Positions 546 through 52,401 of a stretch of 64,000 bases of DNA are shown here, piece by piece (positions within the stretch are counted from its first letter, which is position 1; each line of letters starts with the position of its first letter). This DNA is from an uncultured Bacilli bacterium (lineage in GTDB: Bacteria; Bacillota_I; Bacilli_A; RF39; UBA660). Made by a program: the position numbers and the translations under genes. The stretch is taken from NCBI GenBank assembly GCA_934101115.1, contig CAKOPW010000001.1:73295-137294 (forward strand). The letters are read 5' to 3'. The notes beneath the pieces are model-generated. The model saw only the letters and a program-made list of their open reading frames with translations. It was not told the DNA's origin and ran no database searches.

Positions 546-702
546 ATTTACAACTCCTTACTAATTATCGTTTATTATAAATATATAATATTTCATCAAT
601 TGAAGACAAATATCTTAATACTAATTTAGTATAACATAAATAATTTATGCTAGAAATAAAGTTTGTTAATTATTAACACATTGTTGATTTAGTTTATTAC
701 AT

Positions 703-727
703 AAAAAAATTAGACTTATTAGTCTAA
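703..727 (-). terminator. Rho-independent terminator after the PP2C gene
   Basis: On the minus strand: TTAGAC-taataa-GTCTAA followed by T7, directly after the stop codon at 728-730. Confidence 0.6.
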
Positions 728-1564
728 TTAATATTTATAAAGTACTAAAGTCTTTTCTTTGCCATATTTTGATGAATCTTCTTTTGATTTTTTCTCAATA
801 TAATTTTCAAACTTTTCTAAATTAAATTCAAGAATATTTTTGATAAATTCTTCTTCATGTAAAAATTCAGAAAAACCATCACTGTAAACAATTATTGAGT
901 CATTGTTTCTTAGTGGCACTTCGCCAGTTTTTATAAACTTTATAGCTGCTTTTTCTCCGGTTAATGCACCAAAAGATACACATTTACCATCAATAATATT
1001 GCTTGGATTATTTCTCCACTCACTTCTAACTATTCTACGGCATTCGGGTAAATACCATGGTGGAAGATTGGACTTGCTTTTGTAAGGGTCACTGTTGACT
1101 TTTTTATCATCAATTGTTTGAAATTTAATGTTCCCATTACCATCATATACTATTACACCACAATCACATATATATGCATATTTCAAAATGTTTTCTTGAA
1201 ATTCTATGCAAGCAGCAACGGACCCGTAGCAATCATTTTCAAGATAGTCACATTCTTTGATATACTTATCATTTAGTCTTTTTACTGCGTCATTACAAGA
1301 TATAAGTTTGTCTTTTAAAGAACCGCTTATAGATTGAAAATGTGCACATATTTCTTTTGCTGCAAGTTCAGCTCCACTCGGTCTAGGATACTTTTTTACA
1401 GCTTCTTGTTCACTAACTACAGAAAAATCAGGTAAACCAATTGGATCTCTTGTAATTCCATCTGCAACAATTGCACACAATTCGTCCGCATAAAATTGAT
1501 CTTCTACAGGAAAATTAAAACCGATTGTTTTGATGTTTTCAAAGGTATTTTTATATATTAACAT
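728..1564 (-). CDS. PP2C/SpoIIE-family protein phosphatase
   Basis: 278 aa with ADGITRD and VYSDGFSE acidic motifs typical of PP2C metal sites. AGGAGG lies upstream of the ATG. Confidence 0.6.
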   Translation of the reverse strand: MLIYKNTFENIKTIGFNFPVEDQFYADELCAIVADGITRDPIGLPDFSVVSEQEAVKKYPRPSGAELAAKEICAHFQSISGSLKDKLISCNDAVKRLNDKYIKECDYLENDCYGSVAACIEFQENILKYAYICDCGVIVYDGNGNIKFQTIDDKKVNSDPYKSKSNLPPWYLPECRRIVRSEWRNNPSNIIDGKCVSFGALTGEKAAIKFIKTGEVPLRNNDSIIVYSDGFSEFLHEEEFIKNILEFNLEKFENYIEKKSKEDSSKYGKEKTLVLYKY

Positions 1565-1572
1565 GGTTCCTC

Positions 1573-4500
1573 CTATTCGCTTCTTAGAGCTTCTACTGGA
1601 TCTTTTTTAGATGCTGATTTGGCTGGTATAAGTCCTCCGATTAAAGTCAATATAATCGATAAAGCAACTAATATAAGAGCATGATTTATATTTAATGTTG
1701 CTGAAAGTGGAATATTACCTGTGAAATGATGAATAACCGAGTTTATTATTGGAATAAATGCATAAGATATACCTATTCCAAAAAGCCCTGATAAAAGTCC
1801 AATAATAAATGTTTCGGCATTGAATATTGAAGATATATTTCCTTTAGACGCTCCGATTGCTCTTAATATACCAATTTCTTTTGTTCTTTCATAAACAGAA
1901 ATGTAAGTTATTACTCCTATCATAATACTTGATACAACAAGAGAAATAGAAACAAACGCTATTAATACATAACTTACTGCATTTACAATAGTTTTTACTG
2001 AAGACATAAGAATACCTGTTGTATCTGAATAATTTATTTTTTTATCTTCATCACTCTTTTTGTTATATTCATCTATAAATGATAAGAAATGTTCTTTGCC
2101 ATCAAAACTATTGAAGTAAAAAGATATATATGTTGGTTCTTCTTTATCTTGATAACCTAGCTTTATTAAATTTGTTTTTTGAGTAGTTTCGGTTTTACTC
2201 ATCATGGCACTTACAACACGAGTAAGCTCATCTTCACTAAAATTAAGTGTAAAAGCGGATGCAATTTTGCTTGCATCAATATTAAATGAAGACGCAAAAC
2301 TGTTAGCTAAATCATTTGTCAGATTTCCAACTTTAGTTAGTACTTCACTTTTAACTTTGGCTTCTGTCATTAGATTCGCAAATTTTTCTTCAGTTTCATT
2401 GATTAATGCGCTTTCAAGATAAGAAGATATAACCGTATTTTTTAAATCATTTATTATTAATACTTCTCCATCAAATGTTTTTCCTACTCCGCTTAAATAT
2501 ACTTTATATGCACTAGAATATGCATTCAATAAACCTTTTATTAAAGCACTATAAGAGCTTTTTAGAGTATCTACTGGTATTAAATATGCTTTTTCCATAT
2601 TCTTTAATTTAGATGTAACATCATCTTTGTTAAAGTAATTATTTACTAGTTCATCTATCTTATCCTCTTGGAAATCTCCACTTAAAACATCATTCATAAA
2701 TGTTTTTAAATTACTTTCAAATAAAGTTTTTGCTGGAGTCGTATCAACACTTATAGAGCTTTCTATTTCACTTATCGCTTTTTTAGTTTTATTTTCAATT
2801 GCTGATGAATCAATTTTACCACCAAAAGCATTTTTTAGTTTTTCTTCATCAACTTTAACTAAATCTTCAAATGAGAAAGCGTATTTATTGTTTTCTTTAT
2901 CAAAACGGTTTCCAGAAAAAACATCAATTTCTGAATTTTTTAATTGTTTTTTTACAATGTCAGTGTCTTTAGTTTGGTTGATAATGTAATCTATTAAAGC
3001 ATTAGTATAAACAACTCCTGGGTTAAGAGAAGTAGATGTTACTCCTTCTTTTGCACTTACAACACCAACTATTTTTAATTTTGTTGCTTTTTCATATACT
3101 TTTTTCATGAATGCTTCATCTTCAGACATATCTTCATACACATCATATTTTTTATTGTATTTATATGTATCAGTTGGAAGAACTAATCTTAAATCAACTC
3201 CCATCAAATCTTCATAAGAAAACTTTAATGGATCATGCTTAATATCAACTTCTTCGCCACTCATGATAGAATTAACCATCTTAGATAGTTCACTTGTATC
3301 TCTTAAACCTAAAGAATACACTAACAAATCAGATATGGTATTTTTCTCTGGTAAAACAATTACCATCTCATCATATGCTGTTGGCCAGTGTCCAGCAAGA
3401 ACATCATAATCTTTGGTTACCTCACTTATATCATCCACCATACTAGAATAAACACTTGCCATAGATGAATATGATGACATTAATGAGTTTCCTCCCATCA
3501 TTGATGTAAATAAATTACTAGGATTCACTTTAGAAAGTTTTTTAGTTGCATCAATTGTATAAATATTAGGATCGACACTGTAAGAATATTGAATATTGGC
3601 AACATCATCTTTTATTTCGTTCATGTTTTTTTCTAAATAAGCTTTAAAGCTTTTTAAATCGTTTGTGCTTACACTTGATAACATATTTGTTATATATTGT
3701 TCTTCAGTTACTTCGTCAGTTGACTCACTACTTTTTTCACCACTTCTCATCGACAAAAGAATACTTGTAATATCGGATGATTCTTGCATAATAGTAAGTG
3801 GATATGAATTTAAAGTGTCTTCTTGTATAGAATCAACATAATTTTGAAATCCGGTAGATACAGCCAATATTAAAGCAATACCGATTATACCAATTGAACC
3901 AGCAATGGATACAAGTACGGTTCTTCCTTTTTTAGTCATTAAGTTATTAAAGGAAAGTGTTAAAGCTGTAAAAAATGACATCTTAGTTTTCTTTAATACT
4001 CGGTTATCCTTTTCCTCTTTTTTATAATCATATGGATTTGTATCACTTAAAAGTTTACCATCTTTAATATTAATAATTCTGCTTGAATAGTTTTGGGCTA
4101 ATTCTGGGTTATGAGTAACCATAATAACAAGTTTATCTTTAGAGATGCTTTTTAATAATTCCATTATTTGAACAGAAGTATCAGAATCTAATGCTCCAGT
4201 TGGTTCATCAGCTAAAATAATATCTGGATCATTAACAAGTGCACGTGCTATAGCAACTCTTTGCATTTGACCGCCGGATAATTGATTAGGTTTTTTATTG
4301 ATATGTTTAGATAAACCAACAGCATCAAGTGCCTTAATAGCTTTTTCTTTTATAACCTTTTTAGATACACCGGATAGAGTAAGTGCAAGCTCAACGTTCT
4401 TTAAAACGGTTTGATGAGTAATCAAATTATAGCTTTGAAATACAAAACCAACTTTATGATTACGATATGTATCCCAGTCACGATCATTATACTTTTTAGT

Positions 4501-10895: not shown

Positions 10896-11999
10896 CTAGT
10901 CAGTCATAAAGTCTTTTAATTTTTTAGCACGAGAAGGATGTCTTAATTTTCTTAAAGCTTTTGCTTCTATTTGACGAATTCTTTCTCTTGTAACATTAAA
11001 CCTTTTACCAACTTCTTCAAGAGTATAACTTGTTCCATCAATTAATCCAAAACGAAGTTCTAGCACTTGTTGTTCTCTTGGTTGAAGTGTAGATAAAACT
11101 GATTTAATTTCTTCTTTCAAGATTTCGTTTGTTGCATATTCTTCAGGGCTTAAACTTGATTCATCTTTAATGAAATCGCCTAAATGTGAATCATCTTCTT
11201 CACCAATTGGAGTTTCAAGAGAAACTGGATCTTGACTTATTTTTATAACTTCTCTTACTTTATCAACACTGATACCCATTTTTTTAGCAAGTTCTTCATC
11301 ACTTGGTTCACGGTTTAATTCAAGTGTCATTTGTCTTTGAATACGTGCCATTTTATTAATAGTTTCTACCATATGTACTGGAACACGAATTGTTCTTGCT
11401 TGATCTGCAAGTGCACGAGTTATTGCTTGTCTAATCCACCAAGTAGCATAAGTTGAGAATTTGTAACCTTTACCAAAGTCAAACTTTTCTACAGCTTTCA
11501 TAAGACCGATATTTCCTTCTTGAATTAAATCAAGAAATAAAAGTCCGCGTCCAACATATCTTTTAGCAATAGAAACAACTAGACGTAAGTTTGATTCGGC
11601 AAGAATATTTCTAGCTTCTTCGTCGCCATTAGCTACACGCACTGATAAATCCATTTCTTCTTCAGGAGTTAAAAGGGATATACGTCCGATTTCTTTTAAA
11701 TACATACGAACTGGATCGTTGATATTAACGTCTTTAGTTAAATCTTCATCATCAAGTACGATTACTTCTTCTTCTTTTTTTAATCCATCTTCAGAACTTT
11801 TTGCTTCTTCTTCAGTAATAACACTTATTCCGGCTTCTACAAAGCTATTATATAATTGATCTAATGAATCAGCATCCATATCAAGACCTTGTAAAGCTTT
11901 AGCAAGTTCTTCAAATGTAATAAATCCCTTCTTTTGTCCTTCCTCGATTAGTTCTTTTTTTCTTTCATCAAAAGTTTTAATTTCTTCTACTTTTTTCAT
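10896..11999 (-). CDS. sigA: Primary RNA polymerase sigma factor
   Basis: Regions 2-4 recognisable ([31 protein letters not shown]). Overlaps the dnaG stop. Confidence 0.97.
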
Positions 12000-13720
12000 T
12001 TAACACACATCCTCTTTTTTAAATTCACTATTTCATCATTAATACGAAGTTTTTCATTTATATCCGTTGTCGTTTTTAACTTTTCTTTCAATTCTTTTAT
12101 CTTTCTTTCGTTAGCTAGATCTTTTACTTTATTTACAACATCTATAATTTCTTCATCACTTAACGTATTTTGAATAAATTCGTCTATAACTTGAATTGCA
12201 AGTTCGTAAGCATCACTTTCAACCTCATATGATATAAAATCAGCAATACTTATATAATTATATTTTATATAGAAAGCCAATAAATCATTTGCAAGTGTAT
12301 TATACTCATCATTTGGTAAATATGCAAGTTCTTGTTCATATAGTCTAATGTATTTAGTATCATTCATCATATAGTAACAAATTAAACCATATAATTTCTC
12401 GTCCTTTTTTAATCTTTTTTTTACTTCTACTTTGGTTATAGTTTCTGGCTTGTTTTCAACTTTAATGACTTTATTCATCAATGTATTTTTGTCAATTCCG
12501 TAATCGTTTGCCAGTTTATTAATCGTTAAATCTATTAAAATATCATCTTTACACTTACTTAATTCTGAAAGTATAGAATTAACATACGCTGAAACGTCAT
12601 CGACCTTATCAAAGTTTTTGTTTTTCTTTAATTGATTCAATTTGAAATCAAAGAATGTTACGGCATGTTCTACCGCGTCTATGAATTCACTTACATCATG
12701 GCTAGTTAAATATTCATCTGGGTCTTTGGCTCCACTGATTCTTAATACTAAAGTTTCAATTCCGGCCTCGCTTAATTTTTCTCCATTTTTTATTGTAGCC
12801 ATTTCTCCAGCTGAGTCATTATCCATACATAAAACGACTTTAACGTTTAATTTACTTAAAAGTTTAATATGTTCTTTTGTAAGTGCTGTACCCATAGTTG
12901 CAACAACGTTTTTTACTCCGCAAGAATAAACTCTTATTGCATCCATTTGACCTTCAACAATTATTATAGTTTTCTTTAACCTTGCTTCACTTACGGCTCG
13001 ATGATAATTAAATAATACTTCACCTTTTTTAAATATAACTGTTTCCTTGGTGTTTACATACTTGGCGTCGTCGCTTTGTTTATATATACGAGCACTTATT
13101 CCAACTGGTTTTCCGTTTGCGTTGTGTATTGGGAAAGTTATACGATTTTTAAATATATCATATATTTTATTACCGTGGTTTATTAATCCAACATCAAGTA
13201 AAACATTTTCATCAAAACCTTTATTTAAAAGTAAACTTGATAAGGCATCATTATTGGGTGCTAATCCAATTTCAAATTCATCTATTACTTCATCGCTTAA
13301 TGCACGATTTTGCAAATATTTTTTAGCTTCAATTCCATCCTTGCTTCTTAAATTGTTTTGATAAAATTTAATAGCTAAATTCATAGCTTCATAATGTTTA
13401 TCATATTTACTAGTGACATGAATACCAGTACTTAGTGAAACACCTATTTTATCAGCAACAACTTTTACCGCTTCGATAAAACTTATATTTTCAAAATCTT
13501 GAACAAAGTTAAATACATTTCCAGTTTTGTGACAAACGAAGCAGGTAAATATTCCTTTTTCTTCACTTACTGACATTGATGGATTATGGTCATCATGAAA
13601 TGGACATATTCCAAAATAGTTACTACCTTTTTTTTCAAGACTAATATATGAGCTAATTATGTCTACAATATTAGCTTGTTTTTGAATTGAATTAATTTCT
13701 TCATTACTAATTGCAGCCAT
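11996..13720 (-). CDS. dnaG: DNA primase
   Basis: Zinc-ribbon [13 protein letters not shown]...CFVCH and a TOPRIM segment (EGQMD, DNDSAG). Confidence 0.95.
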
Positions 13721-13794: not shown

Positions 13795-13822
13795 AACATA
13801 AAAAAAGAGGAATAATCCTCTT
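13795..13822 (-). terminator. Rho-independent terminator after glycine-rich gene 1
   Basis: On the minus strand: AAGAGGA-ttat-TCCTCTT followed by a T-run. Confidence 0.6.
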
Positions 13823-13831
13823 GAAAAACTA

Positions 13832-16069
13832 TTAATCTTGACTTATCAATGTTATTTTTGCGTATCCATTGCCGGTGTTTCCAACAGCAGTAGATAATCC
13901 ATCATGAGAAGGCATTTGTGTTTTGGTTCCTTTAACAGTTGTCCAACTATAGCCATTACCATCTATCATTGTTGTGTTTTTAAAAATGATATTGCTGTAA
14001 TGATATGAGCAAGTTATATCGGTTGTTCCATCCTTACATGTTGCTCCCTTACTATCACTTCTTGGTGTAGTACTGTTTTGTGATGAAACCGCAACACAAC
14101 CAGCGTGTCCGGAGATAAATGATGAACCACCACCAGCACCCGAAACGGCTGTATGACCTCCGGCCCCTACCCAATCATAAAAATTTCCAGACCAGTATCC
14201 GTTTCCTCCAGTATTATTATAAAAATAGCTTCCTCCGGTATTAAGCAAAGGAACGTATCCAAAGGCGTGACCTGAAGTTTGAGTGGCGCCTTGAGCTCCT
14301 GTATGTTCTGTAACATTACCAGAAACACAACTTCCACCTTGATAACCAATCAAACCTCCAGCTGACCCTCCATATGGACTTCCCCCGTCAGTTGGATTTA
14401 AACCGCCTTGAGCTCCACCGCCGCCAGCAACCATTATTCTTGAAGTGAGAGATGATAGACTATCCCAACTACCATTTACTAACCTTATATCAGTGGCTCC
14501 TCCTCCAGTTTTAGTATAATTTTGATAACCATAATTGAAAACATAGTCCGTTGACGAAGAATCTAATCCAGATCTTCCAACATAAACATAAAATTTATTG
14601 CCTTTTTTAGCATTTAATTCACCACTTACATAACTTCCGTTTGCCGTTTGATAATAAGCGCCACCTTGCGCTCCCCAAAGCTCAAATTTGTAGGTTCCAT
14701 TTACAGGAGCGATAAAAATTTGTTCACCTCCGGTGTAGTCATAAGTCCATACTTTTTGACTATCATAAGCTTTTTTTGTTCTAGATACTTTATTTAGTTT
14801 TAACTTACATATTAAAGATTTACTATTGATATTATTTATAACTTGATTAGTGCTTTCTTGTGCTTTAATTTCTATTTGTTCGGTTGTTACATTAGTTGGT
14901 GATGATAATAAAGTGATACGAGCATATCCATTTCCTTGCTTTGCACAGTTTTCAGTTGGTGTTGCACTTGTACATGTAGTATTTATTGTTTTTGTATTTT
15001 CTTCGGAAGATTCTTCACAGCTATAGCAATACATACTTTTTTCACTTAAAAGTGAATTACCAATATAACCTGATCCTCCAGCTCCGGATCCTCCCCAAGA
15101 AGCTCCACCTCCATAGAAACCACCACCACCTGATGCCGATGCAAATTCTTTAGTTGTTGTCGATCCACCTCCAACTCCAAAATTTCCATTTAGCCATGAT
15201 TCTTTAGAATTACCAGTTAAGTTACCTCCACCGTAACCTCCGGAGCTTTGTGTTCCACCGGTTGGATTGTTGTTCGCGATTGTTCCATTTGAATAGTTTT
15301 TTGTTGTAGTGGAACCGACATAGCCTCCACCAGCACCGCCATTATCTGCTAACCACCAAGTGCAGGCTCCGCCTCCGCCTCCTGCGACAATTAAAATACC
15401 ATTTAATTTTGAACTAAATTGAGATAGATTTCCACTGTTACTTAATATATGAGTTGAACCACCACCAGTACTAAAATTGATATTGTTTGTATCAGGATTA
15501 TTAACTCTTACATTTCCACTATTAGGATAAGCATATACTACTCCTGAAGATCCGGATGAGTTTAAATTTTTTCCCTTTTCCCCAACATAAATATAAATTT
15601 TGTCACTAGAAGGTAAATTTATTGTACCACTAGAGTACCCTCCATATCCTCCGTGATAACCGTTCGAATCTGTTCCTCCTTGAGCTCCCCATACATCAAA
15701 CTTATATGTTCCACTAACTGGTACAGTAAATGTTTGCTCTCCTCCTGTATAATCATAGTTCCAAACTTTTCCTACATTTTCATCTTCTTTTACACATTCT
15801 AAATAAGCTTCTGTATCATATTCTGTTGAATCATTTACTATATCTACACTTATGTCTCCATTTATATCACTTATTGTAAATTCATCTTTTGCATCGTTTA
15901 TTCCATCCACTTCAGTACCATTTACTTTTAATGAAGATAGGTATACTTTGAAATCATTTAAGTTTTCGGCTAGCTTTGAATTTCCATATATATTTATTGT
16001 TGCATTATATGCTGCATATCCGATTGTCATAAATAAAACTGTTATCAAAAGTATTGGCATCTTCTTCAT
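13832..16069 (-). CDS. Secreted or anchored glycine-rich protein with two Gly-rich (ALK/LTK GlyR-like) modules
   Basis: 745 aa with an N-terminal hydrophobic leader. Two repeats each contain W.YDYTGGEQ.F..PV.GTYKF..WGAQGG...GGYGG, poly-G blocks (VAGGGGG, GGGGFYGGG) and a Cys-rich end MYCYSCEES...CAKQGNGYARITL. Confidence 0.75.
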   Translation of the reverse strand: MKKMPILLITVLFMTIGYAAYNATINIYGNSKLAENLNDFKVYLSSLKVNGTEVDGINDAKDEFTISDINGDISVDIVNDSTEYDTEAYLECVKEDENVGKVWNYDYTGGEQTFTVPVSGTYKFDVWGAQGGTDSNGYHGGYGGYSSGTINLPSSDKIYIYVGEKGKNLNSSGSSGVVYAYPNSGNVRVNNPDTNNINFSTGGGSTHILSNSGNLSQFSSKLNGILIVAGGGGGACTWWLADNGGAGGGYVGSTTTKNYSNGTIANNNPTGGTQSSGGYGGGNLTGNSKESWLNGNFGVGGGSTTTKEFASASGGGGFYGGGASWGGSGAGGSGYIGNSLLSEKSMYCYSCEESSEENTKTINTTCTSATPTENCAKQGNGYARITLLSSPTNVTTEQIEIKAQESTNQVINNINSKSLICKLKLNKVSRTKKAYDSQKVWTYDYTGGEQIFIAPVNGTYKFELWGAQGGAYYQTANGSYVSGELNAKKGNKFYVYVGRSGLDSSSTDYVFNYGYQNYTKTGGGATDIRLVNGSWDSLSSLTSRIMVAGGGGAQGGLNPTDGGSPYGGSAGGLIGYQGGSCVSGNVTEHTGAQGATQTSGHAFGYVPLLNTGGSYFYNNTGGNGYWSGNFYDWVGAGGHTAVSGAGGGSSFISGHAGCVAVSSQNSTTPRSDSKGATCKDGTTDITCSYHYSNIIFKNTTMIDGNGYSWTTVKGTKTQMPSHDGLSTAVGNTGNGYAKITLISQD

Positions 16070-16103
16070 TTTTACATCTTCCTTATCTTTCTATTTTTAT
16101 TTT

Positions 16104-16131
16104 ATAATACCCCCCCCGATTTTCAAGTCAA
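16104..16131 (-). promoter_or_regulatory. Sigma-A-type promoter of glycine-rich gene 1 with a G8 tract in the spacer
   Basis: Minus strand reads TTGACT (16131-16126), then a 16-nt spacer tgaaaatcGGGGGGGG, then TATTAT (16109-16104). The C8 run on the plus strand is at 16110-16117. Confidence 0.55.
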
Positions 16132-16147
16132 ACCAAAAAATTTTGCA

Positions 16148-16173
16148 CAAAAAAATTATGCTTTTTTGCATAA
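16148..16173 (-). terminator. Weak terminator after glycine-rich gene 2
   Basis: On the minus strand: TTATGC-aaaaaa-GCATAA followed by T7. Confidence 0.4.
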
Positions 16174-16178
16174 CTTTT

Positions 16179-18329
16179 TTAATCTATACTTACTAAAGTA
16201 ATACGCGCATATCCATTTCCTTGCTTTGCACAGTTTTCAGTTGGATTAGAATTCACACATGTTGTTGAAATTGTTTTAGTTGATATTTCAGTTGACTCAG
16301 TACAATTATAGCAGTACATCGCCTTATTTGATAAAAAAGAATTTCCAATATAACTAGATCCTCCACCGGCTCCAGATATTCTACTACCTCCGCCTCCATA
16401 GAAGCCGCCGCCACCTCCTACAGAATATTGTGATAAATTGAAATTGTAGTCATAACCAAGTCCAAATGAGCCACAAAGTTTATTTTCATTGTTACAACCA
16501 GCGGCAGTTTGAGTTGCTCCTAAACCATATGTATTAGCTACTGCATGAGCGGATAAGTTATATCCATCTTGTCCCTTAACTCCTCCAGCTGACCCTCCAG
16601 TACCATAATTAACCGTATTACAATATGTTCCTCCGCCGCCTCCACCGGCAACAATTAATATTTGGTCCTTATTATTTTCTAAAGTTGATAGTAAACCTGA
16701 TGTGGTTGCTATATGCGTTGCTCCGCCTCCAGAACTATTTAAACTGTACCTACAACCACGATTATTATTTTTGGCTGATCCCCCACCATTATAACCACCT
16801 TCAACAAAGCGATTAAAAGAAGTAGCTGTTTGACCAGTTCCTCCTACATTGATATAAAGAGTATCGTTAAGATTTAAATTTACATATCCTATAGAATAGC
16901 CTCCATAACCTCCACTATAAACGTCAGTAGCGCTGCCACCTTGGGCTCCCCATACCTCTAACTTATATGTTCCAGTTTCTTTTATAGAGTATTTTTCTTC
17001 CTCTCCTGTATATATAAAACTTGCTTCATTTTTTTCTTTAGAGTTTTCTTTAGATACTTTTTGAATTTTGAGACTGCAAACTAATTTCTCGCCAGTAACA
17101 TTCATAAATTTTTGCTTTAACGTGGAAGAAGATTTTATGTTGTTTTTGTTGGAAGAAAAACCAACTGGTGTCCACTCGTAGCTCTCAATAAAACTAATCT
17201 TAGCATAGCCATTTCCGGATTTAGGACAATTTGCAGTTGGTGTTGCACTTGTACATGTTGTACTTATTGTTTTTGTAGATGTTTCACTTGATTCCGTACA
17301 ATTATAACAATACATACTTTTTTCTAACAACAGTGAATTCCCTATATAACTTGAACCTCCAGCACCTGCTCCGATGTTTGCTCCACTTCCACCATAATAC
17401 CCACTTCCTCCTCCGGAACCTGCTCCGTCATGGTATATAGTCATAGCAGAATTTCCACCTTGTCCAAAAGATCCACAGTCAGCTCCGTTGCTATTACAAC
17501 CAGCCGAGCTTTGATTTCCGGGATTTGAAAGACGGCCGACACCTGTATAATCTTGTAATAAATTTGTTGGTCTCATACCTGTATATCCTCCTGCTGAGCC
17601 TCCAACACCACCATTTGAACCATTGGTATAATGTCCACCTCCGCCTCCTGCAGCTACAATAATTAAATCTTTTTTATTGTTTACAAATGTAGATAAAAGA
17701 CCTGACGAAGTTGCTATATGTGTCGCTCCGCCTCCACCAGCAGCTAGAGATTCAGTTTGAGTGTATGCTAAAGCTGAACCGCCTCCATTATATCCTCCAT
17801 CACATCTAGTAGCAGTTGTACAATTTTTACCTGTTGATCCAACATTGATATAGAGCTTATCATCAACGCTCAACTCTATATTTCCTTTTGAATAACCACC
17901 ATAGCCTCCATGAAATTCATCATTTGCACTTCCACCTTGCGCTCCCCAAACTTCTAGAGTATACACTCCGTTTACTGGTGCAGTAAATGTTTGTTCGCTT
18001 CCTGTATAGTCAAAAGACCATTCATCACCAGCAATCTTTTTTGTAAGTTCACACTCTAAGTAAGCATCGGCATCATATTCTGTTGAATCATTTTTTATTT
18101 CATATTCAACGCTCCCATTTAAAGTAGAGTCTATTGTAAATTCGTCTTTTGCATCATTTATTCCATTCACTTCTGTTCCATTTACTTTTAATGAAGATAA
18201 GTATACTTTAAAGTCACTTAAGTTTTCAGCTAGCAATGTATTTCCATATATGTTTATTGTTGCATTATATGCTGCATAGCCTATTACCATAAATAAAACT
18301 GTTATCAAAAGTATTGTTGTTTTCTTCAT
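16179..18329 (-). CDS. Paralogous glycine-rich protein with two Gly-rich modules
   Basis: 716 aa. The first ~65 aa and the 5' leader are nearly identical to those of 13832-16069, and the architecture is the same (WGAQGG..GGYGGYS.., MYCYNCTES...NGYA.I). Confidence 0.75.
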   Translation of the reverse strand: MKKTTILLITVLFMVIGYAAYNATINIYGNTLLAENLSDFKVYLSSLKVNGTEVNGINDAKDEFTIDSTLNGSVEYEIKNDSTEYDADAYLECELTKKIAGDEWSFDYTGSEQTFTAPVNGVYTLEVWGAQGGSANDEFHGGYGGYSKGNIELSVDDKLYINVGSTGKNCTTATRCDGGYNGGGSALAYTQTESLAAGGGGATHIATSSGLLSTFVNNKKDLIIVAAGGGGGHYTNGSNGGVGGSAGGYTGMRPTNLLQDYTGVGRLSNPGNQSSAGCNSNGADCGSFGQGGNSAMTIYHDGAGSGGGSGYYGGSGANIGAGAGGSSYIGNSLLLEKSMYCYNCTESSETSTKTISTTCTSATPTANCPKSGNGYAKISFIESYEWTPVGFSSNKNNIKSSSTLKQKFMNVTGEKLVCSLKIQKVSKENSKEKNEASFIYTGEEEKYSIKETGTYKLEVWGAQGGSATDVYSGGYGGYSIGYVNLNLNDTLYINVGGTGQTATSFNRFVEGGYNGGGSAKNNNRGCRYSLNSSGGGATHIATTSGLLSTLENNKDQILIVAGGGGGGTYCNTVNYGTGGSAGGVKGQDGYNLSAHAVANTYGLGATQTAAGCNNENKLCGSFGLGYDYNFNLSQYSVGGGGGFYGGGGSRISGAGGGSSYIGNSFLSNKAMYCYNCTESTEISTKTISTTCVNSNPTENCAKQGNGYARITLVSID

Positions 18330-18362
18330 TTTTACATCTCCGTATCTTTCTATTTTTATTTT

Positions 18363-18390
18363 ATAATACCCCCCCCGATTTGCAAGTTAA
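18363..18390 (-). promoter_or_regulatory. Duplicate promoter of glycine-rich gene 2 with a G8 tract in the spacer
   Basis: Minus strand reads TTAACT (18390-18385), then a 16-nt spacer tgcaaatcGGGGGGGG, then TATTAT (18368-18363). The C8 run on the plus strand is at 18369-18376. Confidence 0.5.
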
Positions 18391-18413: not shown

Positions 18414-18446
18414 CAAAAAAACATCATTTTATAGTTGATGTTTTTG
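18414..18446. terminator. Bidirectional hairpin terminator, probably the end of the mnmA transcript
   Basis: ACATCA-ttttatagt-TGATGT flanked by A7 on the left and T5 on the right. Confidence 0.5.
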
Positions 18447-18470: not shown

Positions 18471-18542
18471 GGTGAGCAAATCACCTGTTTATGGGAATAC
18501 TCATAGACACCACTTTGGTAGCTCTTCTCGGCTACCTTTTTT
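18471..18542 (+). ncRNA. Candidate small RNA (about 72 nt) of unknown class
   Basis: Plus strand has TTGATG (18435-18440), 18 nt, then an extended -10 TGaTATCAT (18456-18464). It also has hairpin GGTGA-gcaaa-TCACC, and a terminator GGTAGC-tcttctcg-GCTACC followed by T6 that has a U-tail only on the plus strand. No plus-strand ORF is present. Confidence 0.25.
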
Positions 18543-18562: not shown

Positions 18563-19672
18563 TTATAAATACCAAAGCTTTTCTCCGTTTTTTCTAACTG
18601 TTTTAATTATTCCTGATCCAATACATTGTTCACCTAGATAAATAACACATGCTTGTCCTGGAGTAACTGCTGGAACTTTTTCTGGATAACTTACTTTTAT
18701 TTCATTATTATCCAAATATTCTAACATTACTTCATAATCCGGCCCACGATATCTAAATTTTGCTGTTGCAAATGTTGGGTGATTTGGGCTAATCAAGTTA
18801 ACGTCTTCAATTATACACTCATCACTATAAAGGGTTTCTGGATTATCACCAAAAGCGACAAATAAGATATTTTTCTCTACATCTTTTCCAACAACAAAAT
18901 GTTTATCTTTAAAACCTGATACTCCAACATTTCTTCTTTGACCAATTGTATAATTCATTAAACCATTGTGAGTACCAATAATTTCTCCTGAGTCTATATC
19001 AACTATATTACCTGGATTAGGTTTTAAATAGTTATGTAAAAATTTTTGATAATTTCTTTCTCCGATAAAACAAATACCTGTGGAATCTTTTTTCTTGGCT
19101 GTTGGAAGATTTATCTTACTTGCAATTTCTCTAACTTCACTTTTTTCTAAATCACCGACTGGAAATAAAACATCTTTTAATTGGTCTGCTGATACTTGAG
19201 CTAAAAAGTAAGTTTGATCTTTATTAGAATCAACTCCTCTTAAAAGTTTGTTTCCAACTATTCTAGCATAATGACCTGTTGCAATATAATCAGCTCCAAG
19301 TTTTTTTGCTTCTTTTTTAAATAAATCAAATTTAATATATTTGTTACACATTAAATCAGGATTTGGAGTTCTTCCTTTTTTTAATTCATCCAAGAAATAT
19401 GTGAATACGTTATCCCAATACTCTTTAATAAAATCAACCCTATGTAAAGGAATACCTAAAGTGTTACAAACCTCTAACGCATCATTATAATCTTGTTCTT
19501 GCGGACATATATTATTTCCTAAATTAGGATTTCCTTCTGTATCATTATTAACTAAAGAGTCCCAATTTCTCATAAACAGTCCAATTACTTCGTATCCTTG
19601 CTTTTGTAGTAAATAAGCAGCAACTGATGAATCAACACCGCCACTCATACCAACAACAACTTTTTTAGCCAT
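18563..19672 (-). CDS. mnmA: tRNA 2-thiouridine(34) synthase
   Basis: PP-loop VVGMSGGVDSSVAA and the rest of the MnmA sequence (CNKYIKF, GHYAR). Confidence 0.95.
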   Translation of the reverse strand: MAKKVVVGMSGGVDSSVAAYLLQKQGYEVIGLFMRNWDSLVNNDTEGNPNLGNNICPQEQDYNDALEVCNTLGIPLHRVDFIKEYWDNVFTYFLDELKKGRTPNPDLMCNKYIKFDLFKKEAKKLGADYIATGHYARIVGNKLLRGVDSNKDQTYFLAQVSADQLKDVLFPVGDLEKSEVREIASKINLPTAKKKDSTGICFIGERNYQKFLHNYLKPNPGNIVDIDSGEIIGTHNGLMNYTIGQRRNVGVSGFKDKHFVVGKDVEKNILFVAFGDNPETLYSDECIIEDVNLISPNHPTFATAKFRYRGPDYEVMLEYLDNNEIKVSYPEKVPAVTPGQACVIYLGEQCIGSGIIKTVRKNGEKLWYL

Positions 19673-47860: not shown

Positions 47861-48889
47861 TCATTTTAAATTATTATTACATAAAATTGCCTCAATCTTA
47901 TTCACATAGTTATATGAATTAGAATGACTTGCATGTCCTAAAAAAGAATTATAACTTAATAAAAATTTTTTATCATAAAACATATTATTGTTTTTTAAAT
48001 ATATCCATTGTTTAATTGACTTCTTTACTTTCTTTTTAAAGCGTTTTCTAAGAAGAATATGTGTTGGATAAATAATATATCCACAAAAATCAATACCTAA
48101 TTTATTAGGATAATATCTGCTTTTATGATTAAGCGACAGATTTAAATGGGCACTTACAAAAGTTGAAACTAAGTTGAGCACTTCTTTTGCTTCATCTTTG
48201 GTTTTTAAAATAAAAATCTGATCGTCCATATATCTTGTATAAAATTTTATTTTTAGTTCATCTTTTACATAATGGTCTAATTCATTTAAATAAATATTGG
48301 CAAAGAACTGACTGGTATAATTACCAATTGGAATTCCGACTTCGTTGCCATCATCAAGAATTTTTTTACTGAATTCAAGTAATTTTTTATCTTTAATTTT
48401 TGATGCTAAAATCTTTAATAATATTTCTTTATCTATACTATAAAAATATTTTTTTATATCGGTTTTTAAAATATAACAGTTTTTTCCATATAGTTTAGTT
48501 GCATTTCTCAATTGATTTTGAACACATATAACTGATTTATGCGTTCCTCGATTATCTAAACATGCATATGTATCATTGATGAACCGTTTCATAAAATAAG
48601 GCTTTATAAATTCTTCAACATACCATTGATGAACTATACGATCACGGTAAGGCAAAGATTTTATTATTCTTTCTTTTGGTTCATGAATAACAAATTCTCG
48701 ATATTCACCAAACTTATAAGTATTATTTTTTATCTCGTCCATTATTCTTATAAGATTAGTTTCTAATTCCATTTCAAATATTATTACTTCTTTTTTAGTC
48801 TTTTTACCTTTAGAAGCACGTATGTGGGCACTTAACATTTTTTCGAAAGTCAATTTAGATAGAAAAACATTTTTTATTGTTTTAGGCAT
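47861..48889 (-). CDS. DGR reverse transcriptase
   Basis: EPKERIIKSLPYRDRIVHQ, LKTDIKKYFYSID, PIGNYTSQFFANIYL (the DGR-specific IGxxxSQ block) and YTRYMDDQ. Collinear with my recollection of Bordetella phage Brt. Confidence 0.9.
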   Translation of the reverse strand: MPKTIKNVFLSKLTFEKMLSAHIRASKGKKTKKEVIIFEMELETNLIRIMDEIKNNTYKFGEYREFVIHEPKERIIKSLPYRDRIVHQWYVEEFIKPYFMKRFINDTYACLDNRGTHKSVICVQNQLRNATKLYGKNCYILKTDIKKYFYSIDKEILLKILASKIKDKKLLEFSKKILDDGNEVGIPIGNYTSQFFANIYLNELDHYVKDELKIKFYTRYMDDQIFILKTKDEAKEVLNLVSTFVSAHLNLSLNHKSRYYPNKLGIDFCGYIIYPTHILLRKRFKKKVKKSIKQWIYLKNNNMFYDKKFLLSYNSFLGHASHSNSYNYVNKIEAILCNNNLK

Positions 48890-49236
48890 GCATTTATCCA
48901 GCCTCCTAAAGACATACTAACTAAATTTATTTTTCTACTCCATGCTTCATAATTACGAATGTTTATATATTTTCTTTTGTATGATAATCTAGCAAATACC
49001 CTTTGCATTTTTAAATTGATATCAAGTTCATTTAAGTATTTTAATTTTTCCTTTTTATCAAATGACTTATATGCTAGTAAAATATACTTGATACCTTCGT
49101 AGGATGAATTTTTTATTGTTGCAACTATGCCTGATTTAGTTGAATTAGGATATTTCTCAGTGATCATTTCAAGATATATAATAAAATCCATGTATATTTG
49201 ATAAATTCGTGTTTCTTCAACACAGCTAGCTTTCAC
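48874..49236 (-). CDS. avd: Accessory variability determinant (four-helix-bundle protein)
   Basis: 120 aa, helical, ending SLGGWINA. Overlaps both neighbours and lies immediately upstream of the RT. Confidence 0.75.
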   Translation of the reverse strand: MKASCVEETRIYQIYMDFIIYLEMITEKYPNSTKSGIVATIKNSSYEGIKYILLAYKSFDKKEKLKYLNELDINLKMQRVFARLSYKRKYINIRNYEAWSRKINLVSMSLGGWINACLKQ

Positions 49237-49597
49237 TAATGAGCTTCTCCTTTACATCTTTTAATATATTCAATGCCTGCAAGGGCGTTATAGAATCAAT
49301 GTCTAAGTTGATTATTTTTTCTTTAATTGAATCATCTATATTAGTTTTTAAACTATCTACAACTTCGACGTCTAAGTTGTGATTTTTAAAAACGCGCATG
49401 TAGTTATCAAGAACATCAGCAGGAAAACCACATTTGTATGATTCACTTGAGAATTTTACTTTTTTTAATACAACATAATCATTGATAGTATCACAATCTT
49501 CACCAACAAATATATAAAATTTGCCAGATTTAAAAAGATATAATTTGTTTGCATCTTCTTTTTTTAATTGCAAATACTTTTGATATATCACACTCAA
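49226..49597 (-). CDS. MutS domain-I-like small protein (DGR accessory)
   Basis: From TTG 49597 (AAAGGAGGTGG upstream): SVIYQKYLQLKKEDANKLYLFKSGKFYIFVGEDCDTIN...KCGFPADVLDNYMRVFKNHNLDVEVV. This parallels the MutS N-terminus: mqQY..iK.....lLfFR.GDFYElF..DA...PMaGiP......Y...L...G..VAi. Confidence 0.6.
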   Translation of the reverse strand: MSVIYQKYLQLKKEDANKLYLFKSGKFYIFVGEDCDTINDYVVLKKVKFSSESYKCGFPADVLDNYMRVFKNHNLDVEVVDSLKTNIDDSIKEKIINLDIDSITPLQALNILKDVKEKLISES

Positions 49598-49620
49598 TAT
49601 TACCACCTCCTTTAATCCTA

Positions 49621-49645
49621 TTAAAAAAGTGGAAATGATCCACTT
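49621..49645 (-). terminator. Hairpin terminator/attenuator between the TR and the accessory operon
   Basis: On the minus strand: AAGTGGA-tcatt-TCCACTT followed by TTTTTAA, just upstream of the RBS of 49226-49597. Confidence 0.5.
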
Positions 49646-49836
49646 CTTTTTATCTTTGATGTTCATCATTTTACTACTAACCAAAGACATTCTTTTTTAT
49701 ATTTTATTCTACTATGTAGAAAGGTTATAAATTTCTAAAATAAACACTAAAACAAAATCCGTAGATTAATGATATAAAATATGAATATATTTTTCTTATC
49801 TTTGTTTATGTGAAGAATAATCTTATATATTTTAGT

Positions 49837-49986
49837 GGAGAGAACAAGGCGGAACCCGATGTTAGCATTGGCGCCTCCTGTGTTCCTATTGAAGTTGAAC
49901 TGACCTGCGAGAACTCCATTGTCGTAATTGCCGCCCCGATTGAACCAAGGATACGAGGAGTCAACAAAGTTCGAATTGTCGCCATA
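49837..49986 (-). repeat. DGR template repeat (TR)
   Basis: 150 bp, ungapped match to 50184-50333. Asn (AAY)-rich in the reading frame of the VR. Confidence 0.9.
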
Positions 49987-50090
49987 AAGAGTAAAAAGAG
50001 TCAAAAAAGCTAATTTCAACAACTTATAACCTACATTTATACTAAGACTAATAAATTAATATTTTAAACTAACCTACTAGACATAAATGC

Positions 50091-50134
50091 CAAAAAAGTG
50101 ATTCCTTTCCGCTTAAAAAGAAGGCGGAAAGGAA
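50091..50134 (-). terminator. Terminator of the DGR target gene
   Basis: 11-bp stem TTCCTTTCCGC/GCGGAAAGGAA followed by TCACTTTTTTG on the minus strand. Confidence 0.7.
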
Positions 50135-50156
50135 TATTAAAAGTGAAAAAAGTAAT

Positions 50157-50180
50157 TGTAAAAAAACAAGTTTTTTTACA
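50157..50180 (-). promoter_or_regulatory. Hairpin abutting the VR 3' end, candidate DGR target-recognition element
   Basis: Perfect 10-bp stem TGTAAAAAAA/TTTTTTTACA with a 4-nt loop, starting right after the stop codon (50181-50183). Confidence 0.5.
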
Positions 50181-51590
50181 CTAGGAGAGAACAAGGCGGA
50201 ACCCGATGTCAGCAGCGGCGCCTCCTGTGAGCCTAGAGAAGTGGAACTGACCTGCGAGAACTCCATGGTCGTACCTGCCGCCCCGATAGAACCAAGGAGA
50301 CGAGGAGTGAACAAAGTGCGAACTGCCGCCATACCAACTATTATGGTATCTAGAGTTGTTATCTCCGTCTAAATATGTCTTGAATGGTCCCATCTCTCCC
50401 GTTGCATCTCCTAATATTCTATATTGATAAGATGTTAATGTAGATGATGCTGAGTATACATCATAATATTTAGAATCATAATTAGCAAGTGTTGTAGCAC
50501 TAAAACCACTTGATCCTAATTGACCACTCATATATGATGCCACATATTCATGTGCTCCACCAGACATATCATATATTCCACTTATATTTCCAGTAGTTGT
50601 TGCAAGATAACCGATACTTGTATTATAAGCGTTATTATATGTGTTTCCATCACCATAAGTTCCTGGATATGTTTGTTGGCTTGTACTTGGAAGTGCTGAA
50701 TATCCTGTTTTATATGAACTATTATTATTAATGTTAACTTCCGCATTGATTCCATATTTTGAATGGCTTAGATATGCTACTGCTCCCCATTCAGTGTTTT
50801 TCATCATATGTGAATTCATTGCTCTTTTATAATTATAAGCAGCTGTAAACATATTCATGACTGTTAAATTTCTCCATGAATAAGAATTTGGTTTTACAAT
50901 TATTTTGCTTGAATCATTGGAATTTACTTGAGCAGCAGTTGCACTTGTTGCTCCATTGTATCCAGTTTCAAACTTACCTGCCCAGAAGCCATTTACTCCC
51001 ATGCTTATAAATGCTGGATGTGTCATATATTCTCCGTTTTTACAATTTCCACTTGATCCACTTGTCATTGGAGTTTTACAAGATACTCCGGTTACATCTG
51101 TTGTATCAGTTGTATCAAATATTATCTCGATTTCATGAATATTTTTTGAAGCCGTTCCAGTATTCCATAACTTATATTTATATTTTGGAATCCATACAAA
51201 GTAACTTTGGATATCACTTTCTTTTATTGTGTCTCCTACTTTATAACTTGCTCCACTATTAAGAATAACGGCATTTGCCCAAACTTTATCACAGTAGTTA
51301 TACCATACTTTACTTGTATCGGCGTATGTTACAGTTCCATCATCTGAAATAGTAACTGGTATTAAACCATCGGTTAAATTGGGAACTGCAACTTCTTTTG
51401 AACAAGATGTTAAATCAGATGCCTTGCTATAAAGTTCATCTAATGCATCTTGAACGTTTTTGGATTTTAATAAAGACGAAGAATTATCATAATATACATC
51501 TTTTCCGATAATTAAATCTGCTGCATATGCTACACTTACAAATAGTACTAATGCACACATACCAATTATTAATATTTTTCTATTTTTCAT
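50181..51590 (-). CDS. DGR target protein: secreted, with a C-terminal C-type-lectin/FGE-like variable domain
   Basis: Signal peptide ..VSVAYAAD. HMMKNTEWGAVAYL and a C-terminal ...PWFYRGG.Y..GVLAGQF.F.R..GGA..DIGFRLVLS typical of the CLec fold of DGR targets. Confidence 0.8.
   Translation of the reverse strand: MKNRKILIIGMCALVLFVSVAYAADLIIGKDVYYDNSSSLLKSKNVQDALDELYSKASDLTSCSKEVAVPNLTDGLIPVTISDDGTVTYADTSKVWYNYCDKVWANAVILNSGASYKVGDTIKESDIQSYFVWIPKYKYKLWNTGTASKNIHEIEIIFDTTDTTDVTGVSCKTPMTSGSSGNCKNGEYMTHPAFISMGVNGFWAGKFETGYNGATSATAAQVNSNDSSKIIVKPNSYSWRNLTVMNMFTAAYNYKRAMNSHMMKNTEWGAVAYLSHSKYGINAEVNINNNSSYKTGYSALPSTSQQTYPGTYGDGNTYNNAYNTSIGYLATTTGNISGIYDMSGGAHEYVASYMSGQLGSSGFSATTLANYDSKYYDVYSASSTLTSYQYRILGDATGEMGPFKTYLDGDNNSRYHNSWYGGSSHFVHSSSPWFYRGGRYDHGVLAGQFHFSRLTGGAAADIGFRLVLS
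50184..50333 (-). repeat. DGR variable repeat (VR), the last 50 codons of the target gene
   Basis: 17 mismatches to the TR, of which 15 fall at TR adenines on the coding strand. Confidence 0.9.
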
Positions 51591-51600
51591 AACACCACTC

Positions 51601-52401
51601 CTACACTAACATCGAATTAATTTCATCTATTGCACATTGAACTGTTTCACAAATAGATCTTGATTTTGTATTATCATACTTAGTATATCTAGCATGTAAA
51701 ATAGACCAATCTGCATAGAGAATTTCATCTTCATCATCTTCTATTTTTGTCTTTTCATCAATAGTTTCTTTATCTTTATTAATCCAACCAAGAAAAATTG
51801 AATCTCCCCTTACAGTATTTGGCAAACCTTCATAAGTAGTATTTCCATCATATATTGTATAAGGTTTATCAATACTAGCTCCAGTTGAAGAATAGAAAAC
51901 AGCTTTGTTCTTCTTCACCGCAGTATCACGTGATACATCTTCATATGTTAATCTACATAGAATTGTTTTTTCGGTTGTATCACTTTTACTTATTGTCATC
52001 TCTCCAGAATTGATTTGTTGAGCACTAATTAGAGAATCAAAATTATTAGTAATATTTAATGTTGTATTGTCACTTGCTGAACAACTTAACTTAGCCGACT
52101 CATCATATTCTGTTGCATTATTTCTAACATAATAATCGATTTTAGTTGTTGTTCCGCTCATGGTAAAAGTGAAACTGGATAAATCATCTGATAAATAATC
52201 AAAATGATTTACAGAATCTACAAATACGTTTCCAATGTAACAATCCAAGTCACTTAGGTTAGCTGCTAATAAAGCGTTTCCTTTTGTGAACAGCTTACTA
52301 CTAACTGTTGCATAACCTATTGTCATAAGAACCAGACAACATATAATTATGTTCTGTTTAGATAAATGATAATTTTTTAGTTTGTTTGCAATTTTTTTCA
52401 C
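51601..52401 (-). CDS. Anchored protein with a Listeria-Bacteroides (Flg_new) repeat
   Basis: Leader LVLMTIGYATV... The N-domain is related to that of the glycine-rich proteins. C-terminal GLPNTVRGDSIFLGWINKD...ILYADWS. Lies 10 nt upstream of the DGR target gene. Confidence 0.6.
   Translation of the reverse strand: MKKIANKLKNYHLSKQNIIICCLVLMTIGYATVSSKLFTKGNALLAANLSDLDCYIGNVFVDSVNHFDYLSDDLSSFTFTMSGTTTKIDYYVRNNATEYDESAKLSCSASDNTTLNITNNFDSLISAQQINSGEMTISKSDTTEKTILCRLTYEDVSRDTAVKKNKAVFYSSTGASIDKPYTIYDGNTTYEGLPNTVRGDSIFLGWINKDKETIDEKTKIEDDEDEILYADWSILHARYTKYDNTKSRSICETVQCAIDEINSMLV

Follow-up and report, generated by a model that had tools for sequence, protein, structure and literature searches.

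The glycine-rich domain (GRD) of the animal receptors ALK and LTK is medically prominent, and its bacterial relatives have no assigned function. Two adjacent genes, here called A and B, in a 64,000-nucleotide stretch of DNA from an uncultured Bacilli bacterium of the human gut (GenBank assembly GCA_934101115.1, contig CAKOPW010000001.1, positions 73,295 to 137,294; the window) each encode two such domains in one predicted exported protein, and they raise the question of what this fold does in a bacterium. The answer to which the evidence inclines, with moderate confidence, is that A and B are binding proteins that are exported, mosaic in sequence and stochastically switched, on a common platform of promoter, leader and N-domain.

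The glycine-rich modules

Both genes are on the minus strand, with B upstream and A downstream. Their open reading frames lie exactly where a first reading made from the letters alone (the sequence-only reading) had drawn them, with products of 745 and 716 amino acids (aa), and its count of two modules of about 300 aa per protein agrees with PF12810 matches in two stretches of each and a module size of about 280-300 aa.

13832..16069, minus strand: gene A, 745-aa predicted exported protein with two PF12810 modules (open reading frame; PF12810 238.9 bits, E=1e-70, two stretches)
16179..18329, minus strand: gene B, 716-aa predicted exported protein with two PF12810 modules (open reading frame; PF12810 256.5 bits, E=4.4e-76, two stretches; AlphaFold predicted local distance difference test, pLDDT, 83.4)
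14894..15769, minus strand: gene A GRD module 1 (A1), aa 101-392 (PF12810, alignment)
13835..14752, minus strand: gene A GRD module 2 (A2), aa 440-745, with an alternative long C-terminal cap (best Pfam stretch 457-742; alignment)
17181..18029, minus strand: gene B GRD module 1 (B1), aa 101-383 (PF12810, alignment, model)
16182..17030, minus strand: gene B GRD module 2 (B2), aa 434-716 (PF12810, alignment; single-module model with pLDDT 93.9 and predicted template modelling score, pTM, 0.92; only ALK/LTK found by Foldseek)

The modules are ALK/LTK-type domains of the Pfam family PF12810 (ALK_LTK_GRD), which has a gathering cut-off of 24.5 bits, and the assignment to the Gly_rich family made from the sequence alone was correct. 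No other Pfam domain passes the threshold in A or B, an NCBIfam search gave nothing relevant, and neither search found a toxin or enzymatic domain. A single-sequence phmmer search of B against the sequences of the Protein Data Bank (PDB) had no match. A profile of 35 aligned modules matched SCD-2 of Caenorhabditis elegans (7LIR, E=9.1e-11) and, at E=5e-10 to 3e-9, human ALK, the alignment with ALK pairing the opening motif G.Q.(F/W)..P..G.Y...(W/C)GA.GG.

Structure prediction gives the same assignment. The AlphaFold2 model of full-length B, built with 79 homologs, has a mean pLDDT of 83.4 with an uncertain inter-domain geometry (pTM 0.47), and residues 1-37, which include the leader, are unstructured. 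The single module of aa 434-716, modelled with the 35 aligned modules, reaches the higher values listed above. When the full-length and single-module models were compared with the PDB by Foldseek, all 21 significant matches were ALK/LTK TG/GRD structures (E=2e-8 to 5e-5, and no higher than 1e-5 for the single module; probability 1.00, template modelling (TM) score 0.30-0.47), as the sequence-only reading had led one to expect; the next match was a mycobacteriophage tail-tip chain (E=0.0055, probability 0.47). In the predicted model about 11 Gly-rich motifs per module receive no helix or strand assignment from DSSP and yet have pLDDT >90. These unassigned blocks are compatible with a polyglycine-II lattice, though no proof of one.

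The A and B proteins are 45% identical overall. The alignments bear out what had been read from the sequence: the modules open with W.(Y/F)DYTG.EQ.F..P..G.Y..E.WGAQGG, contain poly-Gly blocks and end in GNGYA.I, although the opening motif of B2 is degenerate (SFIYTGEEEKYS...). The cysteine-rich cap that was thought to close every module, MYCY.C.ES...C...C, holds for three of the four: A1, B1 and B2 end in MYCYNC...TTC...NC, and A2 has a longer, different cap (ISGHAGCVAVSS...) that is also found in three modules from related genomes. Glycine blocks and beta-core positions that are invariant or nearly so among the 35 modules are WGAQGG, GGYGGYS, LYINVGG, GGYNGGG, GGGATHIA, ILIVAGGGGG, GGSGGG, GTQT, GSFG, GGGGGFYGGG, GGGSGYIGN and GNGYARITL. 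Between the conserved blocks about eight segments vary in both length and sequence.

A doubled module of this kind had been called unusual. The family does not bear this out, and the A/B pair is an ordinary member both of a very large catalogued domain family and of a lineage-specific expansion. The matches of a word-seeded search among proteins of similar length exceeded 6,000; metagenome assemblies supplied nearly all of them, and most are of 650-750 aa and contain PF12810. The module profile matched 15,238 cluster representatives (clusters at 50% identity), of which 9,371 had E<=1e-10 and 2,950 had E<=1e-30; many of the 15,238 hold 2-12 modules, with lengths up to 7,775 aa. The 1.54 Mb genome to which the window belongs has 28 PF12810 matches in about 17 genes, about nine of them two-module genes, and tandem arrays of GRD genes are found on contigs C1, C7, C11 and C20. 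Of the 21 other species searched within the genus, 15 had matches, with 0-21 in each and the highest number in the genome of the window; outside the genus, 2 of 19 genomes had them.

A promoter cassette with a run of G

On the minus strand 5' of both genes there is the same arrangement, (T)TGA/CAAATC-GGGGGGGG-TATTATAAAATAAAA...AGGAAG...ATG. This cassette, a promoter with a G-run followed by a leader and an N-domain, precedes 36 genes in the genome, a set that takes in the family of about 17 GRD genes. Related cassettes occur in metagenome-assembled genomes (MAGs) labelled 'uncultured Bacilli bacterium' from the Hadza gut, in 'Firmicutes bacterium CAG:582' and in human-gut metagenomes.

18358..18390, minus strand: gene B promoter-like element, TTAACT-16-TATTAT overlapping TTGCAA-16-TAAAAT (consensus scan, sequence)
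18369..18376, minus strand: G8 run (C8 on the plus strand) in the gene B promoter spacer, candidate slipped-strand switch
16099..16131, minus strand: gene A promoter-like element, TTGACT-16-TATTAT overlapping TTGAAA-16-TAAAAT (consensus scan, sequence)
16110..16117, minus strand: G8 run in the gene A promoter spacer
16149..16173, minus strand: AT-rich hairpin and T7 directly after the gene B stop, probable terminator (judged from the sequence; missed by a scan for GC-rich terminators)
13805..13822, minus strand: terminator-like hairpin after gene A (terminator scan)

In A and in B alike, the consensus scan puts G8 inside both of the overlapping 16-nt spacers. Such runs are confined to this context. 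G/C runs of 5, 6, 7 and 8 number 77, 8, 2 and 33 in the genome, with none longer, and the 33 runs of at least 8 compare with an expectation of 0.33. All 35 runs of at least 7 lie in a cassette promoter, 5' of genes with leaders. Over 165 cassettes (36 from this genome, 60 from related MAGs and 69 from gut metagenomes) the run is G8 in about 85%; nine have G7, eight G6, two G9, and five an interrupted run or G5. The tight mode at G8, together with the 16-nt spacing, suggests that G8 is functional and probably the 'on' length, and that contractions would turn the genes off. Two variant cassettes, at C13:17289 (AAAATC-G8-TATTATAGAC...) and C34:5948 (AAAATC-G7-TAATTATATA...), have a G-run promoter followed by a different leader.

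Given the hairpins after B and after A, each gene looks like its own transcription unit. The block of 3' end, intergenic region and 5' end around 16149-16173 recurs at other tandem pairs. Just upstream of the gene B promoter, a further hairpin with a T-run follows mnmA (18415-18445, minus strand), and a terminator-like hairpin, GGTAGC...GCTACC with T6, lies on the plus strand at 18517-18542 with no obvious plus-strand gene upstream.

Leader and N-domain

The 36 cassette genes fall into two leader/N-domain subtypes, MKKTTILLITVLFMVIGYAAYNATINIYGN..., found in A, B and most two-head proteins, and MKKKSMLIVAILLMSIGFAAISTTLIINGNAKVSEN..., whose cargo is DUF6273 (PF19789, E=2.7e-24), an unassigned domain or a single GRD. 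The two are homologous across about the first 95 residues (profile E=2e-16).

18270..18329, minus strand: gene B leader, aa 1-20, MKK, a hydrophobic stretch and IGYA|A; signal peptide or signal anchor (sequence; conservation among homologs; cleavage predicted)
18042..18269, minus strand: gene B N-domain part 1, aa 21-96, ending ...AYLEC (non-GRD cassette proteins have a homologous N-domain; profile E=2.9e-16, BLASTP E=7e-12)
17034..17165, minus strand: gene B N-domain part 2, or inter-module beta segment, aa 389-432, ...LVCSLKIQKVSKE (second collinear high-scoring segment pair (HSP), E=0.007; weak profile match; beta strands in the model)

A 266-aa protein encoded elsewhere in the window (51601-52401) has the family leader and a contiguous N-domain. 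It aligns to residues 1-93 of B (E=7e-12) and, collinearly though weakly, to residues 410-438 (E=0.007). From this collinearity the first GRD seems to be inserted inside the N-domain, with the second at the position that cargo takes in other cassette proteins. The nesting of the first GRD in the N-domain and the placing of the second as C-terminal cargo are thus moderately supported.

Export and surface display of A and B are suggested by the hydrophobic leader at the N-terminus. G17, Y18 and A20 of the leader are invariant among the 79 homologs, and IGYA|A is a possible cleavage site for signal peptidase. Conservation in the protein is highest in the stretch directly following the hydrophobic leader, a stretch to which the model gives no structure. 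Neither protein has an LPXTG motif, a C-terminal anchor or a lipobox cysteine, residue 92/93 being the first Cys. The genome has six sortase matches, one Mur_ligase_M match, and three SipW-type and two standard S26 signal peptidases; a prepilin peptidase at C4:86673 lies about 4 kb from two cassette genes. A donor-strand leader like that of the TasA/SipW system was considered and set aside as speculation, since it has no family match and the SipW-type peptidases present are unlinked to the A and B genes. Contig C3 carries a long GRD protein without the cassette leader (1228+ aa, 660-4347 in reverse-complement coordinates), within whose gene there is a direct repeat of about 750 nt (98.7% identity, exact core of 630 nt).

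Probable copying between paralogs

The sequence-only reading had proposed gene conversion within the pair, on the basis of nearly identical 5' ends. The ends are less alike than that: over the first 60 or so codons A and B have 88-90% nucleotide identity, which then falls to about 50%. The 5' ends of paralogs on other contigs, on C11 for A (90%) and on C20 for B (89.6%), are at least as close to theirs as the ends of A and B are to each other, and the similarity therefore reflects conservation of the cassette throughout the family, or concerted evolution, and not conversion within the pair. Signs of conversion were found in another place.

17334..17842, minus strand: tract of 509 nt that matches module 2 of a 684-aa paralog (contig C7) at 100% identity; flanks at about 75-85% (exact-match search)

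This tract corresponds to nt 488-996 of gene B and nt 1388-1896 of the C7 gene, and covers the variable loops in the centre of B1, so that module 1 of one gene is paired with module 2 of another. Both flanks have many synonymous and non-synonymous differences, and the tract has the appearance of a recent gene conversion. Megablast missed it, the HSP having run into the diverged flanks. An exact tract of 301 nt, covering promoter and 5' end, similarly joins genes of C7 and C11.

Relatives in phages and a probable binding role

The domain is also widespread among the virion and fibre proteins of phages. Phage proteins in BFVD gave 71 matches at E<=1e-3, one of them a gut-virus protein with two modules (E=4e-34), and several PHROG families of unknown function matched with E values down to 2e-76. 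In the Clostridioides difficile phage phiCDHM13, gp21 is a PF12810 protein (E=4.7e-48) whose gene comes directly after that of the tail-collar fibre and before the lysis genes. A tblastn search of phage genomes found no more than a short part of the N-terminus, in C. difficile phages, with masking of low-complexity sequence the probable cause.

A search of the literature on PF12810, Gly_rich and bacterial polyglycine-II domains gave no function for the bacterial members, as the sequence-only reading had supposed. By analogy with ALK/LTK and with the use of the domain in phage fibres, each bacterial head is most likely a rigid scaffold on which variable loops are displayed for binding.

The locus

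The pair lies between mnmA (18563-19672) on one side and dnaG-rpoD (10896-13720) on the other. The G+C content (GC) of the region is 37%, compared with a background of about 28%, which might suggest a foreign origin. The rise is explained by glycine codons: GC at the second codon position is 0.50, and glycine makes up 17-18% of the residues. At the third position (GC3) it is 0.19, like the 0.13-0.18 of neighbouring genes, and the genes are therefore taken as native and a foreign origin is rejected.

A protein identical to A adjoins dnaG-rpoD on an independent gut-metagenome contig (ENA ERZ28614266 scaffold_6140). That contig starts 43 nt 5' of the ATG of A, at or beside the cassette, and the G-run is outside it. 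Protein B had no record in other assemblies in a search for independent assemblies of the two genes. Several other contigs also begin or stop at a cassette; these repeats fragment assemblies, and the copy counts given here are therefore lower bounds.

Weighing the reading

The proposed scheme is as follows. A and B would be independent transcription units whose products leave the cell by the Sec route, with a conserved leader and a small beta-rich N-domain. One TG/GRD head would be inserted in the N-domain and a second would stand at the C-terminal cargo position. In each head, glycine blocks and beta strands make up a conserved scaffold with about eight hypervariable loops. Slipped-strand changes in the G-run would shift the length of the spacer and turn each gene on or off independently, and recombination between paralogs would carry the variable centre of a head from one gene into another. 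The heads would bind host, bacterial or phage-related ligands, in keeping with the role of the domain in ALK/LTK and phage tail fibres.

Several observations count against this scheme. The promoter hexamers are consensus matches only. The presence of G8 in so large a share of the cassettes, with almost no longer runs, could mean that selection keeps it fixed as part of the promoter. When 123 cassettes (from this genome, from related MAGs and from gut metagenomes) were compared for orthology, a single orthologous pair was found (both flanks >=97% identical), and its run lengths are equal (n=1); no metagenome cassette was >=95% identical downstream to one of this genome. The 509-nt exact tract could be a chimera of MAG assembly. 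With no recognisable anchor, A and B may be released from the cell, and the TM score to ALK/LTK is only moderate, at about 0.45.

In a rival account, the proteins would form a constitutive, diverse coat or matrix without a specific ligand, and G8 would be a conserved part of a strong family promoter or of a regulator site, copied together with the cassette, and no switch. G8 is kept across species, both hexamer pairs are at a workable 16-nt spacing when the run is G8, and the sole orthologous cassette pair shows no change of length. This explanation is nevertheless rather unlikely, for about 15% of the cassettes have other lengths (G5, G6, G7, G9), slippage is an intrinsic tendency of G/C homopolymers of 8, as is known from simple-sequence contingency loci, and hypervariable loops on a rigid scaffold, in a domain used by phage fibres and by ALK/LTK, point to recognition and not to bulk structure.

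Release would give the proteins a different part to play, away from the cell, as decoys for the receptor-binding proteins of phages or as targeting modules against competing bacteria. The possible signal-peptidase I site at IGYA|A, the want of a recognisable anchor, the standard and SipW-type signal peptidases of the genome, and the sharing of the domain with phage fibres are all in keeping with this. It is nonetheless improbable: A and B have no toxin or enzymatic domain, and the highly conserved, unstructured segment after the leader suits attachment or assembly. That A and B are tail-fibre genes of a prophage or tailocin, as the BFVD and PHROG matches might suggest, is very improbable and was rejected on genomic context, in view of the Sec-type leader and separate promoter of each gene, a location flanked by mnmA and dnaG-rpoD and free of phage genes in its vicinity, the native GC3, the 17 dispersed copies and a leader common to non-phage cargo proteins.

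Switched, mosaic, exported binding proteins thus remain the preferred interpretation. A bolder extension, put forward tentatively, is that of a combinatorial system for recognition, made up of the 36 cassette genes, in which independent poly-G switches are joined to the copying of loop centres between genes and between head positions. If so, a gut bacterium with a 1.5 Mb genome could keep making new binding surfaces on a fixed polyglycine scaffold. In any event, 28 copies of the domain in one small-genome gut bacterium, apparently switched individually and reshuffled, point to a role in recognition, and single heads that fold confidently in silico are tractable material for learning what the fold binds outside animals. 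The findings also add an uncultured gut lineage to those with apparently large repertoires of contingency loci, which bears on colonisation, evasion of immunoglobulin A and resistance to phage.

Retroelement-like neighbours

At 48071-52401 on the minus strand of the window there is a probable diversity-generating retroelement (DGR), with a reverse-transcriptase match (PF00078, E=2e-16) at about 48071-48676. The same strand carries, upstream of this match, an open reading frame of 154 aa (49226-49690), a 469-aa protein (50181-51590) and the 266-aa protein described above. The C-terminus of the 469-aa protein resembles a cassette-driven 470-aa protein on contig C30. A second reverse-transcriptase match is on contig C12 (C12:1555, C12:4250-4813), lying some 2.7 kb downstream of a further cassette gene with a G8 run (402 aa). 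Because of this proximity, some cassette genes may be both under poly-G control and targets of DGRs.

Comparison with known systems

The modules of A and B belong to the same Pfam family as the TG/GRD of ALK and LTK (PDB 7NX1, 7MZY, 7LRZ, 7LIR, 7N00, 7NX0), where it is an extracellular binding module, the role that is proposed for the bacterial heads. The receptors' domain binds ALKAL ligands (titles of PDB entries); the ligand of A and B is certainly not ALKAL. A and B lack the kinase, transmembrane helix and EGF-like, MAM and LDLa domains of the receptors and end at the second GRD, and they have two heads per chain, 16-21% identity and hypervariable loops. They are members of the domain family and not relatives of the receptors; orthology to the ALK/LTK receptor tyrosine kinases was rejected, PF12810 being the only Pfam domain present.

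In phages the nearest parallels are tail fibres. The gp24 fibre of the cyanophage Pam3 (PDB 7YFW) has domains of TNF-like and of glycine-rich type that were likened to ALK (7LIR) and to gp38 of phage S16, and host recognition was proposed for it, the glycine-rich motifs serving as a conserved scaffold and variable segments as the proposed receptor contact (PMC9608196). The modules of A and B are alike in this respect. Foldseek similarity to 7YFW was not significant (E=0.6-0.84, probability <=0.14), and gp38 of the Salmonella phage S16 (6F45) was absent from the Foldseek matches, so that it is likened by analogy. The gp21 protein of phiCDHM13 has the same PF12810 domain as A and B in a receptor-binding gene position. 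A and B differ from all three fibres in having Sec leaders and chromosomal promoters, and in having no fibre shaft or chaperone gene.

For the cassette there are precedents in the homopolymer switches found in promoter spacers: poly-A of vlp in Mycoplasma hyorhinis, poly-G/C of porA and opc in Neisseria meningitidis, and poly-C of fim in Bordetella. As in these systems, a homopolymer lies between what are here predicted -35 and -10 hexamers, a block of promoter and leader is duplicated before many genes, here of putative surface proteins, each with its own tract, and the tract differs in length among copies. The difference is that the tract here is unusually uniform (G8) and that poly-G switching of the cassette genes is suggested by their layout; moreover, the host is an uncultured gut Bacilli with a small genome, and the cargo is GRD, DUF6273 and other domains in place of lipoproteins or porins. 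The poly-G cassette family of 36 genes, the nested-head architecture and the conversion tract fit what is found in contingency loci and in mosaic families of surface proteins. The combinatorial system outlined above would parallel, in a cell, the diversification of phage tail fibres and antigenic variation of the pilE/pilS type, carried on the domain of animal ALK and LTK.

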